Source: a virus (lineage: Duplodnaviria > Caudoviricetes). From it: a stretch of DNA of 64,000 nt. Positions within the stretch are counted from its first letter, which is position 1. The number at the start of each line of letters is the position of its first letter. The notes beneath the pieces were generated by a model, which saw nothing but the letters and a program-made list of their open reading frames with translations, was not told where the DNA came from and searched no databases. Location of the stretch: IMG/VR virus record IMGVR_UViG_3300025413_001239; one strand, written 5' to 3'. Below, piece by piece: positions 4,093-53,438 of this stretch. The position numbers and the translations under genes were made by a program.

Positions 4093-4140
4093 AAAAAACT
4101 TGACAATTCAAAAACTTTTCGTATATTTGCATATATTTAT
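4093..4140 (+). promoter_or_regulatory. tandem promoter of tRNA cluster 1 (TATATTTGC plus TATTTAT boxes)
   Basis: aaaaaacttgacaattcaaaa...gtatatttgcatatatttat; the first 21 nt are identical to 51444-51464. Confidence 0.7.
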
Positions 4141-14410: not shown

Positions 14411-16360
14411 ATGATTAAAATAAATGATGTGATAGAAGGAAAAATAAGCGTTAACCATAGTGGTTCCGCTTATTTGGTTAGTGAGCAATCACCAAAGGAT
14501 ATTTATGTTCATAAAAACAATATTAATAAAGCATTTCATTTGGATGTTGTTAAGATTAAAATAGTTAATGGTCGTGGTCGTGAACTTGAAGGTGTCGTTA
14601 CTGAGATAGTTAAAAGATTCAGAGACGAATTTGTTGGTAGTATTCAAATATCAAAAAAACATGCATTCTTTATACCAGATAGTAACAAGATGCCGATAGA
14701 TTTCTTTATACCTCTAACAAAATTAAAAGGTGCTAAAGATGCTCAAAAAGTTGTTGTTAAATTAACATCTTGGAAAGATAACAGTAAAAACCCTAATGGT
14801 GAAGTTATAAAGATTCTAGGTGAAGCTGGTGATAATGAAGTAGAAATTCACTCAATACTCCATGAGTATGATTTACCCTATGACTTTGAACCTGACATTT
14901 TGGCTGAAGCTGAGGCGATATCGAGTGAGATAAGACAGTCTGACATAGATGCTCGTAGAGATATGAGGGATGTACTTACTTTTACAATTGACCCAGTAGA
15001 TGCCAAGGATTTCGATGATGCTTTATCAGTACAATGGGTTAATGGTCAACTTGAAGTTGGTGTTCATATTGCCGATGTATCACATTATTTAAGACCAGAT
15101 ACGGACTTAGATAAAGAAGCTTATCGTAGAGGTACCAGTGTTTACTTAGTTGATAGAGTTGTACCAATGCTTCCAGAAAGGCTTTCTAATGGCTTATGTA
15201 GTCTTAGACCACATGAAGAGAAGTTGTGTTTTTCAGCGATATTTACGCTTGACCAAAATGCAACAATTGTAAATGAATGGTTTGGAAGAACAATTATTAA
15301 TTCTGACCATAGGTTTACATATGAAGGAGCCCAAGAAATAATTGAAGGTAAACCACATTTCTATGAGTCTGATGAACTTGATGTTAATGGTGGATATGTT
15401 AAAACGCTTGGTGGTATGATAAAAGATGCGGTATTAGCTCTTGATAAGTATGCTAAAAAGCTTAGAAAGCAAAGACTTGGTGAAGGTTCAATTACTTTCG
15501 ATAAGCAAGAAATAAGATTCAAATTGGATGAAAACAACAAGCCAGTTGACCTTATATTCAAGATAGCTAAAGACTCAAATCAATTGATTGAAGAATTCAT
15601 GCTTTTAGCGAATAGAAGGGTTGCTTATTTGTTAAATCACAATGATTACCCAGATATCAATCGTGTGCATGAGGAACCAAGTCAAGAAAAGCTTTTAGCA
15701 TTAAAGCAATTTATTAAGCAATTTGGTTATGATATTAAGGTAAATACACCTGAGGAAATAACTTTATCACTTAACAAATTACTTGCTAGTGTTAAGGGTA
15801 AAGCTGAAGAAAACATAGTTTCTAACCTTGTGGTTAGGTCAATGCAGAAAGCGGCTTATTCTACAAAGAACTTAGGTCATTATGGTCTTGGATTTGAAGA
15901 TTACGCTCATTTCACCAGTCCAATTAGAAGATATCCAGACGTAATGGTGCACAGACTTCTAGGACGCTATTTAGAGGCTAAAGCAGCCCCTAAATTAGAT
16001 AAGTTGGAGTCAAGGTGCCAATACTTATCTGAACGTGAAAGAAAGGCTCAAAAAGCTGAAAGAGATAGCATCAAGTATATGCAATGCATATATATGAGTG
16101 AAAGAATTGGTAATGTTTATAAAGGACTTATCACTTCGGTTACTGATTATGGTATGTTTATAACAATTTGTGAAAATAATTGTGAGGTATTGGTAAAATT
16201 AACATCAATCAATGGAACTTGGTTGGTGGATTTAAAAAAATATCAAATAGTTGAATTTGACACTAAAGAAAAAATAAGATTAGGTGATTATGTTCATGTA
16301 GTTATTACTAAAGTTGATGTTGAAAAAAAGAATATTGATGCATCAATTATGCTTCTCTAA
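14411..16360 (+). CDS. rnr: ribonuclease R
   Basis: TIDPVDAKDFDDALS, HFTSPIRRYPD, CSD and S1 domains. Confidence 0.95.
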   Translation: MIKINDVIEGKISVNHSGSAYLVSEQSPKDIYVHKNNINKAFHLDVVKIKIVNGRGRELEGVVTEIVKRFRDEFVGSIQISKKHAFFIPDSNKMPIDFFIPLTKLKGAKDAQKVVVKLTSWKDNSKNPNGEVIKILGEAGDNEVEIHSILHEYDLPYDFEPDILAEAEAISSEIRQSDIDARRDMRDVLTFTIDPVDAKDFDDALSVQWVNGQLEVGVHIADVSHYLRPDTDLDKEAYRRGTSVYLVDRVVPMLPERLSNGLCSLRPHEEKLCFSAIFTLDQNATIVNEWFGRTIINSDHRFTYEGAQEIIEGKPHFYESDELDVNGGYVKTLGGMIKDAVLALDKYAKKLRKQRLGEGSITFDKQEIRFKLDENNKPVDLIFKIAKDSNQLIEEFMLLANRRVAYLLNHNDYPDINRVHEEPSQEKLLALKQFIKQFGYDIKVNTPEEITLSLNKLLASVKGKAEENIVSNLVVRSMQKAAYSTKNLGHYGLGFEDYAHFTSPIRRYPDVMVHRLLGRYLEAKAAPKLDKLESRCQYLSERERKAQKAERDSIKYMQCIYMSERIGNVYKGLITSVTDYGMFITICENNCEVLVKLTSINGTWLVDLKKYQIVEFDTKEKIRLGDYVHVVITKVDVEKKNIDASIMLL

Positions 16361-37934: not shown

Positions 37935-38005
37935 GGTTCTATAGCTCAACGGCAGAGCTGGACTCTCTAAAAGTCTTGATGTTGGTTCGATTCCGACTAG
38001 AATCA
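37935..38005 (+). tRNA. amber-suppressor tRNA (anticodon CTA)
   Basis: ggttcta/tagaatc acceptor; agct D-stem; ggact-ctCTAaa-agtct; gttgg-TTCGATT-ccgac; own TATATTTGC promoter. Confidence 0.85.
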
Positions 38006-38053
38006 CACTTTACATTTTTTAACAATTATTGTATATTTATAAAAAAAAGAAAT

Positions 38054-42958: not shown

Positions 42959-44194
42959 TTAAATAACAATTAAATCGTTATTTATTTGATTACGGACATT
43001 ATTGTTCATAATCACACTAGTGTAATCCAGTGGCTTTGTCATTGAAGCAAGGTGATTGTCGTAATATCTTTTCATTATGTTGATAGCTGAGTTTAAATCT
43101 CTATCTATTTCGACATTATCACTTAGTTTAACAGTTCTATCCTTTAACTCAACTTTATCTTTAAATAGCTTACCAGTAAGACTATTCAATTGAGTGGTGT
43201 ATTTTTCATCAATCTTAATTAAATCACATTGTTTATTTTGTGACTTATACTTAAGAAATTCTAAGAACATATTAATATTAGATTCATTAAATGATTTTCT
43301 AATACCCTTTTTATTCTTATTTACTCCTTCTGTTGACATAAGGGTTTTTACTGTTAAATCGCCAACTACAATTGTTTTGTAGTTCATATTCACTAATTTT
43401 TTACTCTGAATATGTAGAGTTTGTTTAATTTGACTATTCTTCTTATTATATAGTTTTCTTTTAACTTTATTTAATTTATTAAAGGATTTACTATTCTTTT
43501 GTTTTTTGCTTAACTTAGACTTAATCTTATTAATCTGTTTACCGAAGTACTGATTAATCCTCTTTGATTTATTTTTAAGAATAACAACGGTACCATTGTT
43601 ATCCACACCAGTACCTAAATTCTTTAGACCTAAATCAATAGCGAGTACTCTTGATTTAATTATTAAATCATCTGAGTAGTTTATTTTATCATCGACAACA
43701 ATATCACAAAGCCACTTATTATTAATAAATTTGACTCTAATTTCTTTAATATTTAATTCAGATAAGTTTGTTAAATGACTTGAATATTTAAAATTAATTT
43801 TATTTATTGAAATTATACTATTTTCTTTGAATATCCAACCATTTAGGTTAAAAACTAATGTATGATACTTTCCGAGTTCTTTTGTCTTTGGTGGTCTAGC
43901 TGTATTATCTTTTTTAATAAGTGTGAAGAAAGATTGGTATGATTGAAATATTTCAGCTGCCACAACTTGTGCTGCTTTTGCATTAAATTGTTTCCAAGAT
44001 TCCTTGGTTGAATATTTCAATGGTGGAATGAGGTTAATTAAATCAAACTTTGAGTATACCTTTTTAGTTGATTCATAGTGTTTTTGCTGAATATCAATAA
44101 GAGTGTTCCAAATATCCATACGAATATCAGACAACTGTTTTAGTTGAGATACCTGTTCTGTTGTTGGGTGTAACCTTATTGAGTATGTTTTCAT
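42959..44194 (-). mobile_element. tnpB: IS200/IS605-type TnpB RNA-guided nuclease without TnpA, rearranged-RuvC type
   Basis: KTYSIRLHPT; AIDLG; VVGDL; IDEKYTTQ; DRDLNSAINI. Confidence 0.85.
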
Positions 44195-49275: not shown

Positions 49276-50568
49276 ATGAAGTGTATTAAAACAAGGAAAA
49301 TTCAGTTGTTGCCATTAGGTGATTTTAATGAAACCTACAAATACGTTAATAATTTAAGTTCAGGCTTAGCGTCACTCGGTAATGAAATGATAAGGAGACA
49401 TGTTTTATCATTTTATGAAATGGACGTACTAAAAGATTCAACTCCAGATGCTAAAACTAGAACTAATCTAATGAAGGAAAAATACGGAATGTCACTCCAA
49501 AATATGGGTTATGATGTTTCAAAAAAGTATTCAGCCACAATTCCTTCGAATATTCGCACAACATTTAATCAAAAGGTCTTTAAAAAAATAAAAGACAGTT
49601 ATTTTGGTATTTCAATAAATAAAGAATCTATACCATCATTCAGAAAAGACTCAATGGCAATTCCATTTAGTTATGATAATAATATCAGTTTGAACGAATT
49701 TGGGGTGTATGATTTTAAATTCTTTAATAATGTCAATTTTAAATTAAACTTTGGACGTGATAGGTCTAATAATAAAGTTATCATTGACAGAATTTTATCT
49801 AATGAATATAAGCCATTATCTTCACATATAAAAATTGATAAGAAAAAAATATTCTTAGATTTAACATATTCTTTTGACTCAGATGAAAATGTTAACATAT
49901 CTAAAGATAAAATTGTTGGTGTTGATTTAGGTATAAATAGACCTATGACAATTGCTAGGGAAGATGGTACTTATGCAAAACAAATAGAAATCGGTGGTAA
50001 GATTCAATACTCTAGATTATCAATTCAAAAACAAAGAAGAAGCTTACAAAGTGCTTTAAGGCATTCATCTGGTGGTCATGGTACTGGTAAAAAAATAGCT
50101 AAATTAAAATCATTAAAAGATTATGAACATAATTTCATGAAAACCACTAATGATACACTAAGTCGTGAATTAATAAAATATTGCGTTAATGAAGGTGTTG
50201 GTGTAATTAAATTAGAAAATCTAACTGGTATAACAGAAAATGCTAATAATTTTCTTAAGTCTTGGTCTTATTATCAATTACAACAAATGATTGAGTATAA
50301 AGCTGCTGAATTTGGAATTACAGTATTATATGTTAATCCTAGATATACCTCTCAAACTTGTCCAACTTGTGGCAATATTGATAAAACTCAAAGAGATTCA
50401 AAGGATAAAACAAAATTTGCTTGTTCAAATGAAATTTGTTCTGATATTAATATAAATAAAGATGCTGATATTATTGGTGCCTTTAATATCTCAAAAAGAG
50501 ATGGTGTTATCGCTTCTAAAAAAATATTACAAGAAAAAAGTGATAAAAAGTTGTTAGTTTCAGAATAA
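49276..50568 (+). CDS. cas12f: type V-F Cas12f-like RNA-guided nuclease (430 aa)
   Basis: RuvC D217 (GVDLG), E314 (KLENL), D398 (DADI); CPTC zinc finger; GGHG and W-YYQLQQMIEYKA motifs resemble AsCas12f1; abuts tracr and array. Confidence 0.85.
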   Translation: MKCIKTRKIQLLPLGDFNETYKYVNNLSSGLASLGNEMIRRHVLSFYEMDVLKDSTPDAKTRTNLMKEKYGMSLQNMGYDVSKKYSATIPSNIRTTFNQKVFKKIKDSYFGISINKESIPSFRKDSMAIPFSYDNNISLNEFGVYDFKFFNNVNFKLNFGRDRSNNKVIIDRILSNEYKPLSSHIKIDKKKIFLDLTYSFDSDENVNISKDKIVGVDLGINRPMTIAREDGTYAKQIEIGGKIQYSRLSIQKQRRSLQSALRHSSGGHGTGKKIAKLKSLKDYEHNFMKTTNDTLSRELIKYCVNEGVGVIKLENLTGITENANNFLKSWSYYQLQQMIEYKAAEFGITVLYVNPRYTSQTCPTCGNIDKTQRDSKDKTKFACSNEICSDININKDADIIGAFNISKRDGVIASKKILQEKSDKKLLVSE

Positions 50569-50589
50569 GTTCGTATATTTGCATAAATA

Positions 50590-50750
50590 AAAAAAGTTCT
50601 TTTACATATTGAGCCTAACGGCTGGGCTGGTTGTTCAGCCTTAAGGTGAATCCACGAATAAACGTGGTGATACTCTAGAGTATTGGAGGAAACTCACTCA
50701 CCAAATACCTTTAAATATAGGGTTTATAATGTCGTTAATGGTATAAACAA
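50590..50750 (+). ncRNA. putative tracrRNA (boundaries approximate)
   Basis: own promoter at about 50572-50583; anti-repeat 50705-50733 complementary to the repeat; GTTGTT near 50630 complementary to the repeat 3' AACAAC. Confidence 0.7.
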
Positions 50751-50769
50751 TTAAGAAATGCGCTATTCA

Positions 50770-51398
50770 GGTGTTAATGACCCTAATTTGAAAGGTATAA
50801 ACAACTAACGCTTGCAATGCAGTTCAGGTAGTGTTGGTGTTAATGACCCTAATTTGAAAGGTATAAACAACAGTATTATATAATTGTTGTTGCATTTGAT
50901 GGTGTTAATGACCCTAATTTGAAAGGTATAAACAACAGAGGTGTTCTAGCTTGACTTCACTAATATGGTGTTAATGACCCTAATTTGAAAGGTATAAACA
51001 ACGGACTGGCATCGTTAATGGTTGCTGGTCACGGTGTTAATGACCCTAATTTGAAAGGTATAAACAACAAAACTTTAATAGACCACTCTTAGGGTCTAGG
51101 TGTTAATAACCCTAATTTGAAAGGTATAAACAACCATAATATTATTTTTAATTCACCGCAATGTGGTGTTAATGACCCTAATTTGAAAGGTATAAACAAC
51201 GGGTTGAGTTAACTGGTCTGTTATTGTCATGGTGTTAATGACCCTAATTTGAAAGGTATAAACAACGAAACTGAACGTTTACTAAAAGACAAAGAAGGTG
51301 TTAATGACCCTAATTTGAAAGGTATAAACAACGAGACTGAACATTTACTAAAAGACAAGGAAGGTGTTAATGACCCTAATTTGAAAGGTATAAACAAC
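50770..51398 (+). CRISPR. CRISPR array: 10 x 36-bp repeat GGTGTTAATGACCCTAATTTGAAAGGTATAAACAAC, 9 spacers (8 x 30 nt, 1 x 29 nt)
   Basis: repeats start at 50770, 50836, 50901, 50967, 51033, 51099 (one G>A), 51165, 51231, 51297, 51363. Confidence 0.98.
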
Positions 51399-51443
51399 TT
51401 CGTCACTCAGGTACGTATTTAATTTTTTTTAAAGTTTTTAGTG

Positions 51444-51531
51444 AAAAAACTTGACAATTCAAAATAAGTTTGTATATTTGCATTGTAATTAAAAAATTTT
51501 ACACTTTTTAAAAAAGTGACATATTTATAAC
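51444..51531 (+). promoter_or_regulatory. promoter of tRNA cluster 2 (TATATTTGC and TATTTATA boxes)
   Basis: 21-nt identity with 4093-4113. Confidence 0.7.
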
Positions 51532-51559
51532 AAAAGGGAAACCCATAAACAAAAAGATA

Positions 51560-51643
51560 ATGATAAACGTTAACAACATATTTAATTTTAATTTTGAAGC
51601 AGCTGAGGCAGATTTTAGCCATCAGAGGGTTGAGGTATTGTAG
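51560..51643 (+). CDS. putative leader peptide MINVNNIFNFNFEAAEADFSHQRVEVL* (TAG) of tRNA cluster 2
   Basis: 27-codon ORF between promoter and terminator. Confidence 0.6.
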   Translation: MINVNNIFNFNFEAAEADFSHQRVEVL

Positions 51644-51672
51644 TTAACGAATCGAAAGAAACATATTAAACG

Positions 51673-51703
51673 AAAGCCCTTAACCAAAAGTTAAGGGTTT
51701 TTT
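51673..51703 (+). terminator. attenuator-type terminator ahead of tRNA cluster 2
   Basis: aaagcccttaac-caaaa-gttaagggtttt plus T-tract, about 10 nt before tRNA-Asp. Confidence 0.75.
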
Positions 51704-51712
51704 ATTTATATT

Positions 51713-51783
51713 CGAGGTGTAGTTTAGTGGTAAAATGCCGCACTGTCTATGCGGTGTCACGATTTCGATTATCGTCATCTCGG
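51713..51783 (+). tRNA. tRNA-Asp(GTC)
   Basis: cgaggtg/catctcg acceptor; ccgca-ctGTCta-tgcgg. Confidence 0.85.
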
Positions 51784-51785
51784 CA

Positions 51786-51870
51786 CGGAAAAAATTCCTA
51801 GGGATAGGAACTATCTTGATAAAGATAAGTACTGCACGAATCATAATAAGTTCGAATCTTAATTTTCCGC
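51786..51870 (+). tRNA. atypical tRNA-Ile(GAT)-like
   Basis: cggaaaa/ttttccg acceptor; tatc-ttGATaaa-gata (8-nt loop); TTCGAAT loop. Confidence 0.5.
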
Positions 51871-51910
51871 AACGGAGAATCACAACTCTAAAAAAAATGT
51901 GAAACTGGAG

Positions 51911-51983
51911 GGGGGGTCATGTACCAAGGCTGGCGAGAAATACTTGCAATATTTCTGGAAGATTTCAATTATCTTACTCTCCA
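51911..51983 (+). tRNA. tRNA-Ala(TGC)
   Basis: aaata-ctTGCaa-tattt; acceptor ggggggt/actctcc with G3.U70. Confidence 0.75.
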
Positions 51984-52046
51984 CAGGTGTCACTGATATA
52001 CTGACCGAGCATGGGGATTAGTAATAATCCCTAGTATATCTAATAA

Positions 52047-52121
52047 GGTGCCGTAGCTGAGATGGTTTAGCGGTTGGTTGAAGCCCAGCGACTTACAAGG
52101 GTTCGATTCCCTTCGGTACCA
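52047..52121 (+). tRNA. tRNA-Phe(GAA)
   Basis: ggtgccg/cggtacc acceptor; gttgg-ttGAAgc-ccagc. Confidence 0.85.
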
Positions 52122-52178
52122 GATAGTCAATGTTAATCCACCTGCACGTTGGTGATTATCGCACACTAGGAATAGTGA

Positions 52179-52586
52179 CTAAGTGATTAACAAAGTTCTT
52201 TGATTTATGATATTAGCAATAATATCAAGAAATTTTTTAGATGTATTTATTTTGAATTTTTGTTGAAATGATGTATCAATAATACATAAATCAATTTTAT
52301 TTTCAATACATGATTTAAATTTATTCTGGTCATTTATTTGTGTCTGGTTTAATTTATTAATACCGAAAATCGGTTCATAATGAAATATTCCATTCAATTC
52401 AAATGCTAAATTAAGTGACGGAATGTAGATGTCTAATTCAGAACCGATTGCATCCTTCTTATTATAGTCTATTTGTAGATTAGGGTAAAGAATTGTTAAT
52501 TGTTCTTCAAGATATATTTCGAGTTTAGAGCGTCTTGTGCCAGTTGTTTTATGTTTATTATAATTGTGAGTAAATTGAATAAAAAT
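52179..52586 (-). pseudogene. 5'-truncated PD-(D/E)XK/DUF559-like endonuclease inside tRNA cluster 2
   Basis: ELDIYIPSLNLAFELNGIFHY; no start codon outside tRNA-Glu. Confidence 0.55.
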
Positions 52587-52672
52587 GCTATGGTCGACTA
52601 GTGGCTCAGGTCGCATCCCTTTCAAGGATGTGGGGAGAAATCCCCTCACGGGTTCGAATCCCGTCCATAGTA
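52587..52672 (+). tRNA. tRNA-Glu(TTC) with long variable arm
   Basis: gctatgg/ccatagt acceptor; catcc-ctTTCaa-ggatg; gggga-gaaa-tcccc extra arm. Confidence 0.8.
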
Positions 52673-52994
52673 CAAATGTTTTAGTTATGATTAAGCGAAC
52701 AATTAGTGGTAGTTTTACTAATATGGTAAAACCTGACCCAAGTGTTATGAAAGATAGTGATTTTGATTTGTTATCGTTCTGATAGAACACTGGTTGTATT
52801 CACAATATGTAAGAGCGCATATACCAATTGCTGCTTTATGGGACAGAAAAGTTGAGGGGAAAGTTCGATTCTTTCGAAGGACACATTATTAACAAGTTAA
52901 AAAAAATGAGCGCAATGAAACAGCTGGACGCAATGTCACCAATCAGATAAGAGAAGAAAGAAAGGTTCTGATTGGTACGAGACAAACACGAAAA

Positions 52995-53387
52995 TTGAAG
53001 AAATATTCTGATAACTTCAATACAATTTTTACTTTCTTTCTAAAGTCTTATAGGAGTGGTATATTAACATTTAGTGGTGTTGATGTTCCTGTTCATTATG
53101 ACATAAATGGTCCTGAGGGTAAATTCACATTCCGAAAATTTGAGAATGGTGATTACGTTAAGGACATTATTACTTCATGTCACCCAAATATTATTAAGGG
53201 TGTAATAATTGCAAAAAAAAGTTGGGGGTTACACATAAAATTATGGAGCGAAGGTATTGCTGATTGGTGCTTTACCGAAGAAGAAATCCTGAAGCAATTC
53301 AGCGATAAGGGTATTCTTATTCCTGAACCTCTTTTAAACGACTTCAAGAATCACGTAAATAAGGCTAAACAAAAAAGATATGAATAA
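52995..53387 (+). CDS. hypothetical protein
   Basis: ORF track (TTG start). Confidence 0.6.
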   Translation: MKKYSDNFNTIFTFFLKSYRSGILTFSGVDVPVHYDINGPEGKFTFRKFENGDYVKDIITSCHPNIIKGVIIAKKSWGLHIKLWSEGIADWCFTEEEILKQFSDKGILIPEPLLNDFKNHVNKAKQKRYE

Positions 53388-53438
53388 TATTTGGTAATAT
53401 CAAATAAAATCGTATATTTGCACTCTAAATTATAACAC

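Follow-up and report, generated by a model that had tools for sequence, protein, structure and literature searches.

Transcription attenuation by leader peptides is known from the amino-acid operons of enterobacteria, where the trpL, hisL, pheL and leuL leaders are accompanied by multivalent ones, the ilvGMEDA leader sensing Ile, Val and Leu and the thr leader sensing Thr and Ile. Attenuation of an aminoacyl-tRNA synthetase operon is represented by the pheM leader of Escherichia coli pheST. The leader-peptide attenuators that we know of all regulate enzymes of amino-acid biosynthesis or synthetases, tRNA genes being generally treated as promoter-controlled stable-RNA genes; to our knowledge, the regulation of the tRNA genes carried by phages is largely unknown. 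Here, we analyze a short leader open reading frame (ORF) and an intrinsic terminator located in front of a tRNA array in a 64,000-nucleotide (nt) stretch of phage DNA (IMG/VR record IMGVR_UViG_3300025413_001239; Duplodnaviria, Caudoviricetes), hereafter referred to as the window. The unit probably acts as a ribosome-mediated leader-peptide transcription attenuator gating a phage tRNA operon. Codon-sensing control of phage tRNA supply had been proposed in an earlier note made from the letters of the window, and it is supported by our sequence and comparative tests, i.e., by the composition of the leader, the existence of four leader types, covariation, and ribosome-masked folds.

In its layout the locus resembles the enterobacterial leaders, as it possesses a promoter, a short ORF with regulatory codons, predicted alternative 2:3 and 3:4 pairings, a possible 1:2 pairing and an intrinsic terminator before the regulated genes, and, as in the ilv and thr leaders, several amino acids would be sensed by one leader. 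Unlike these leaders, the phage element precedes tRNA genes and not those of biosynthetic enzymes, and would sense the decoding capacity for the operon's own tRNAs; moreover, the phage has promoters of a Bacteroidota type and no Shine-Dalgarno sequences, and no sequence similarity to the enterobacterial leaders is present. With pheM it would share the placement of a gene of the translation apparatus under a leader peptide whose codons report a tRNA species, whereas pheM controls a synthetase, senses one amino acid and belongs to a cellular operon. As in T-box systems, tRNA status would be coupled to terminator read-through before translation-related genes; the T-box, however, needs no translation and binds tRNA directly, via the specifier codon and the T-box sequence, whereas the codons of the phage element constitute an ORF running from start to stop. 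The regulated genes being tRNAs, the targets differ from those of the described leader-peptide attenuators, and a full-text search of a literature library returned no account of tRNA genes being attenuated by a leader peptide. No Phe-rich leader is present 5′ of E. coli pheV (tRNA-Phe) in the K-12 sequence.

A possibly similar arrangement was found in the cultured Caulobacter phage phiCbK (JX100813, 47200–52700; L060 in our set), in which annotated terminators stand directly before the tRNA blocks. The block of Phe, Val, Ile, Ile, Val, Gln and Gln follows a small ORF, MSKTYRQFVRQIQVVRNIRAGRSRMADEGFRD (MSKTYRQFVRQIQVV..., ..QFVRQIQVV..), and that of Pro, Lys, Leu and Ser follows gp083, which is rich in S, L, P and K. 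The match is clear in one of the three blocks and less clear in the other two, the comparison with phiCbK covering ORF composition and annotated terminators.

Codon content of the leader ORF

The leader ORF (51560–51643) was described in the earlier note as enriched in Ile, Phe, Glu, Ala and Asp, and these residues indeed occupy 11 of the 13 positions encoded by codons 7–19 (IFNFNFEAAEADF). The match between leader and array was quantified by a segment score, with +1 given for each amino acid in the set of an array and −2 for any other, the best segment being taken. For the Asp, Ala, Phe and Glu (D/A/F/E) set of its own array (array B of the four distinguished below) the window leader scored 8, with values of no more than 3 for the other three array sets, and random peptides of proteome composition reach the score of 8 with P = 1.4 × 10−4. 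When all 1093 ATG ORFs of 20–40 codons from the window and the related contigs G001 and G002 were ranked by the D/A/F/E score, the window leader occupied the first place (8) and its G001 homologue the second (7), the next best ORF reaching 5. As judged by these sequence tests, the composition match between the leader and the array is not chance. A His-rich small ORF with a high score for the set of array D was rejected, being the antisense of an Asp-rich gene.

The start context of the leader was compared with that of the phage genes, of which 4% have a Shine-Dalgarno sequence and which are A-rich at positions −13 to −10. At positions −15 to −1 the A content is 73% in the leader, against means of 54% for the genes and 36% for all ATGs, and the leader ORFs in general share the A-rich, Shine-Dalgarno-free start context. 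The leader ORF has the start context of the phage's real genes and looks translated. Its stop codon, TAG, terminates 5 of the 57 long ORFs, and the phage carries a tRNA with the anticodon CTA (37935–38006). If the TAG is read through, the ORF runs on to a TAA at 51692–51694, in the terminator 3′ arm, so that amber suppression could bring ribosomes into the terminator and link array B to the suppressor level.

Leaders and tRNA arrays in related phages

Relatives (about 14 IMG/VR contigs) were found via the promoter patterns, and their tRNAs were called independently by ARAGORN; arrays preceded by such leaders were seen in contigs G001, G002, G003, L023 and L044–L058. According to these calls, the relatives have their tRNA genes sorted into four arrays according to amino acid, each having the same promoter type, an ORF of 25–34 codons and a terminator followed by the first tRNA, with a gap of 21–32 nt between the stop codon and the terminator in all types. 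Type A corresponds to Pro, Gln, Tyr, Thr, Gly and Lys (core ..YTYYQPKTQGGKTP..), type B to Asp, Ala, Phe and Glu (core ..FNFNFEAAEADF..), type C to Cys, Val and Leu (core ..LVLCLCVLVL..), and type D to Trp, Ser, His, Ile, Asn, Arg and Met (core ..NINNMINSINWRHNNSRS..). The 19 distinct leaders fall into these four types, and each of them scores highest for its own array. Sister switches appear to be present on the three other arrays of the relatives, and the whole phage tRNA complement appears to be split into four amino-acid regulons. The phage collection contained no close relative of the window phage, and a metagenome scan with the type-B 5′ untranslated region (5′-UTR) pattern returned duplicates of G001 and L023 only.

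Four type-B leaders were available for comparison: that of the window (MINVNNIFNFNFEAAEADFSHQRVEVL, core MINVNNIFNFNFEAAEADF.., followed by Asp, the Ile-like and Ala-like elements, Phe and Glu), that of G001 and L023 (MIQVNNIFDFNIEAAEADFGTQRLR, core MIQVNNIFDFNIEAAEADF.., followed by Asp, Ala, Phe, Glu and others), that of L056 (MRTLTNDFRFETAAFEDYSQGRSNTVIS, core MRTLTNDFRFETAAFED.., followed by Phe, Glu, Asp and Ala) and that of L057 (MRTLTNIFDNAFFAAEEDYSLEGQALS, core MRTLTNIFDNAFFAAEED.., followed by Phe, Glu and Asp). The D/A/F/E composition of the core is kept in all four, and the order of the residues varies. Composition conserved without order is what would be predicted for selection on codon content, unlike the case of a functional peptide. 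Between the window and G001, a 1-nt indel alters the C-terminal residues and leaves the RNA segment preserved.

Terminator, predicted antiterminator and ribosome-masked folding

The terminator that had been noticed between the leader and the tRNAs was recovered as a 13-pair hairpin with a T run (Table 1). The accompanying suggestion, that GAGGGTT at 51625–51631 pairs with the terminator 5′ arm, held in part: this pairing is possible (ΔG −10.1), but a better-conserved register lies 3 nt downstream, at 51628–51635, and a deletion in G001 weakens the GAGGGTT register. In the downstream register GGTTGAGG (51628–51635) pairs with CCTTAACC (51678–51685) with a ΔG of −12.4 (shuffle p 0.03), being, in the window, the segment that pairs best with the 5′ arm of the terminator. 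The leader RNA as a whole is strongly structured (folding z-score −5.4). The terminator-pattern scan yielded unrelated terminators only.

Comparison of the type-B leaders shows covariation between the putative antiterminator segment and the arm of the terminator. The arm AAGCCCTTAACC is accompanied by GGTTGAGG in the window or by GGTTAAGG, at the same place, in G001; in L056 and L057 the arm is another one, AAGCCTGACCT, and region 2 contains the matching AGGTCA. As the MAFFT alignment of the four leaders offsets the terminator arms by one column, the pairings were compared sequence by sequence. In all four leaders, 10–12 nt separate the last cognate codon from region 2. The 1:2 pairing was found in the minimum-energy folds of four of the four type-B leaders, and truncated-transcript folds without the ribosome contained the antiterminator in three of them.

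The effect of ribosome position was modelled by masking a 28-nt footprint for each A-site codon and folding the transcript up to the terminator loop. In the window, the antiterminator was predicted with the ribosome at codons 2–13, 15 and 19, weak 5′-UTR pairing competing at codons 14 and 16–18, and it was lost from codon 20, the last cognate codon being 19. The same boundary was obtained for the other three leader types. In G001 the antiterminator was lost from codon 21 (last cognate codon 19), in L056 from codon 19 (last cognate codon 17) and in L057 from codon 20 (last cognate codon 18). In these models, each of the four type-B leaders has its last cognate codon where the ribosome, at its final permissive position, still leaves the antiterminator free. 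The density of own-set codons in type-B leaders is 57% in the permissive zone and 9% beyond it, the proteome background being 23%; with all types pooled, own-set codons account for 246 of 307 codons in the permissive zone and for 84 of 239 beyond.

Table 1. Features of the leader unit and of the tRNA array following it in the window
Feature	Position	Strand	Description
Promoter P1	51444..51483	+	21-nt core, TTGACA and −7 box
37-nt segment	51484..51520	+	Absent from the L056 and L057 leaders; copies in G001 and L023 the same save one base
Small 5′-UTR hairpin GGGAAACCC	51536..51544	+	Kept in all four type-B leaders
Leader ORF MINVNNIFNFNFEAAEADFSHQRVEVL	51560..51643	+	27 codons, TAG stop; kept in G001, L023, L056 and L057 with altered residue order
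Sensing codons 8–19 (F N F N F E A A E A D F)	51581..51616	+	10 of 12 decoded by tRNA types of own array
Region 1, within the sensing codons	51593..51600	+	Pairs with region 2 in the minimum-energy fold, as a putative anti-antiterminator
Region 2 GGTTGAGG, putative antiterminator 5′ strand	51628..51635	+	5 nt before the stop codon
Intrinsic terminator	51672..51709	+	Hairpin 51672–51702, 13 pairs, then T run and T-rich tail
Region 3 AAGCCCTTAACC, terminator 5′ arm	51674..51685	+	
Region 4 GTTAAGGG and T run	51690..51703	+	Followed by the T-rich tail
tRNA-Asp (GTC)	51713..51784	+	ARAGORN and Rfam, 58 bits
tRNA-like element ("Ile-like" in the earlier note)	51786..51870	+	GAT triplet; anticodon loop non-canonical (8 or 6 nt)
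Degenerate tRNA-Ala (TGC)-like gene	51911..51984	+	Relaxed ARAGORN threshold only
tRNA-Phe (GAA)	52047..52121	+	ARAGORN and Rfam
ORF between tRNA-Phe and tRNA-Glu	52179..52574	−	Inserted; no Pfam match
tRNA-Glu (TTC)	52587..52673	+	ARAGORN and Rfam; long variable arm

Promoter and 5′-UTR

The core of promoter P1, AAAAAACTTGACAATTCAAAA (51444–51464), is identical to the sequence at 4093–4113 upstream of the other tRNA cluster of the window (cluster 1), exactly as the earlier note had it, and a wider 34-nt promoter pattern has two sites only in the window, namely these two. P1 contains TTGACA at 51451–51456 and the −7 box GTATATTTGCAT at 51472–51483. The −7 motif is present in 23 copies on the plus strand of the window; the extended P1 core occurs in the window only upstream of the two tRNA clusters and, in the relatives, before tRNA arrays. 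The form of the −7 box, TAnnTTTG, we take to be that of a Bacteroidota promoter type, the presumption as to the host being our own. No promoter motif was detected from 51484 to 53411, the array interior included, and tRNA-Asp starts 4 nt past the T-rich tail of the terminator. Since there is no room for a promoter before tRNA-Asp and no motif inside the array, the latter would be transcribed only through the terminator.

The 37-nt segment following P1 contains a perfect 17-bp palindrome, CACTTTTTAAAAAAGTG (51502–51518), which is a candidate 5′ hairpin and could also be an operator or part of a second promoter; the segment is itself promoter-like (TTTACA-16-CATATT, designated P2). In the relatives L046, L051, L052, L055 and L010, tRNA-Met genes have the same promoter directly 5′, with no leader ORF or terminator, and in the window a single tRNA-Phe (28736) and the tRNA with the CTA anticodon (37935) have the −7 motif just 5′ and no leader. 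Matches in Lak-B phages comprised the promoter-like region only, with no leader or terminator downstream.

Proposed mechanism and its alternatives

In the proposed switch, RNA polymerase would initiate at P1, producing a leader transcript of about 220 nt, whose 27-codon ORF would be translated by the ribosome. Slow decoding of the Phe, Glu, Ala or Asp codons (8–19) would make the ribosome lag on region 1, leaving region 2 free to pair with the terminator 5′ arm (51678–51685); no terminator would then form, and the polymerase would enter tRNA-Asp and the rest of the array. Upon fast decoding, region 2 would be covered by the ribosome having reached the last codons or the stop, or region 1 would re-pair with region 2 behind the ribosome, in which case the terminator would form and transcription would stop in the T run. 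The switch would thereby place the supply of the tRNAs encoded in the block under negative feedback. The parts of the switch, their order, the composition match, the complementarity, the conservation and the covariation are observations of the sequence analysis; that the ORF is translated, and that stalling would alter termination in the above direction, is what they point to.

One alternative is a constitutive leaky terminator, or a terminator of the transcript of the CRISPR array lying directly upstream of the leader (50770–51398; 10 repeats of 36 nt with 29–30-nt spacers), with an incidental ORF and no codon sensing. Short ORFs are indeed frequent in AT-rich DNA, single antiterminator helices are only marginally significant, and, with the stretch from the CRISPR array's end (51398) to P1 being free of terminators, precursor CRISPR RNA transcripts would end at 51703–51709. 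Nevertheless, the leader and the terminator are conserved in G001, L023, L056 and L057, all of which are without this CRISPR repeat nearby; the leader ranks first of 1093 small ORFs for the amino acids of the array; the four leader types are each matched to their own array; and the cognate codons stop exactly where the ribosome starts covering region 2, so that both composition and geometry would be left unexplained. We consider this alternative improbable, and the terminator may additionally end CRISPR array transcripts. About as improbable, in our opinion, is that the ORF senses the decoding speed and the output is different, ribosome position controlling termination by Rho, RNase cleavage or first-tRNA processing, or the response having the opposite sign. 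The variation of the predicted no-ribosome state between the variants, the shortness of the helices, and the position of the stop codon 21–32 nt 5′ of the terminator in all types, a spacing usable by other coupling mechanisms, are compatible with such an output, but all the units have a canonical intrinsic terminator, regions 2 and 3 are complementary and covary, and the geometry is like that of classical attenuators.

A strongly structured unit of about 220 nt from promoter to terminator, beginning 46 nt past the last CRISPR repeat, could also be thought of as a non-coding RNA at 51484–51709, e.g., a trans-activating CRISPR RNA (tracrRNA) or leader belonging to the adjacent type V array, or a tRNA sensor resembling the T-box, the remaining options being a functional micropeptide or the minus-strand ORF at 51419–51622; we regard this group of explanations as very improbable. 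The tracrRNA was rejected because the anti-repeat lies at 50704–50734 (ΔG −21, p 0.02), while the leader pairs with the 36-nt repeat with a ΔG of −14.7 (p 0.37), and the T-box (RF00230) because 51400–52800 contained no match to it at E ≤ 10, nor to any other Rfam family save a sub-threshold Thr_leader. The latter match (RF00506; 17.8 bits against a cut-off of 55) aligned the terminator hairpin alone and was discarded. A micropeptide is at variance with the conservation of composition and not of peptide order, and the minus-strand ORF is interrupted in G001.

Several facts weigh against attenuation by codon sensing. With respect to the leader, D/A/F/E amount to 11 of 26 codons of the whole ORF and residues of another array's set (I, N, S, H, R) to 10 of 26, type B being the least pure of the four types, with Asn, Ile and Val codons within the sensing zone; slow decoding of these would inevitably act in the same way. 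The five Asn codons have no Asn tRNA in the array, and stalling at them would thus induce a block unable to relieve it. Furthermore, the array of the window has five members, of which two are non-canonical as tRNAs. With respect to the RNA, the individual antiterminator helices are short (6–8 bp) with marginal shuffle p values of 0.005 to 0.19 for type B, and the predicted state without the ribosome is terminator-prone in the window and antiterminated in G001, L056 and L057. P1 is missing directly upstream of the type-B leader in G001 and L023, where the palindrome-bearing segment, a possible second promoter, is alone retained. Finally, related sequences share ancestry, and the pooled P values hence overstate the evidence, the effective independence being that of four types and two type-B lineages.

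tRNA array and genomic surroundings

The composition of the array, given in the earlier note as Asp, Ile-like, Ala, Phe and Glu, was reproduced by ARAGORN and Rfam for Asp, Phe and Glu; Ala is weak, appearing at a relaxed threshold, and the Ile-like element was called by neither program. Canonical Ala-TGC genes occupy the corresponding place in the relatives. The earlier statement that the five Asn codons lack a tRNA is correct for the window, which contains no tRNA-Asn; Asn tRNAs belong to array D of the relatives. The element at 51786–51870 exists in five copies in the window and relatives (L013, 1786–1872 and 2418–2514; L023, 5126–5214 and 5597–5694; triplet GAT or GAC), which share a cloverleaf with two covarying pairs, in the acceptor and D stems, and a long extra region. 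The assignment to Ile thus depends on an element that is tRNA-like and non-canonical. In the relatives, several further members of the arrays have 6-nt anticodon loops and were left unassigned by ARAGORN. The long variable arm of tRNA-Glu is unusual for a Glu tRNA and is kept in G001 and L023. The minus-strand ORF inserted before this gene lies outside the switch and, by its position, could encode a homing endonuclease.

The window is part of a large phage-like genome, with genes for an RNase II/R-like protein, for homing endonucleases and for two TnpB/Cas12f-like proteins. The RNase II/R-like gene (RNB, CSD2 and S1 domains) is located at 14411–16360, and the second TnpB-like gene at 42959–44194 on the minus strand. 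A miniature type V CRISPR locus occupies 49276–51398 and includes a 430-amino-acid Cas12f/TnpB-like ORF (Pfam PF07282, PF01385) and the anti-repeat mentioned above; two of its spacers, 51267–51296 and 51333–51362, are 95% alike.

Biological significance

A further step, which we put forward tentatively and consider possible rather than probable, is that each of the four regulons has a set point maintained by a codon-sensing leader of its own, which would make phage translation independent of the host tRNA pool. The trigger would be the loss of host tRNAs in infection, e.g., through host anticodon nucleases or phage-driven tRNA turnover, and the response an on-demand tRNA replacement. Should codon-sensing attenuation of the array be true, it would represent a classical mechanism in a new use, a direct sensor of the translational tRNA pool that feeds back on the matching tRNAs, and the leader switch would be a compact and portable part with which tRNA supply could be controlled in synthetic systems. 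It would also bear on the contest between phage tRNAs and tRNA-targeting host defences, and would account for the grouping of phage tRNA genes according to amino acid.

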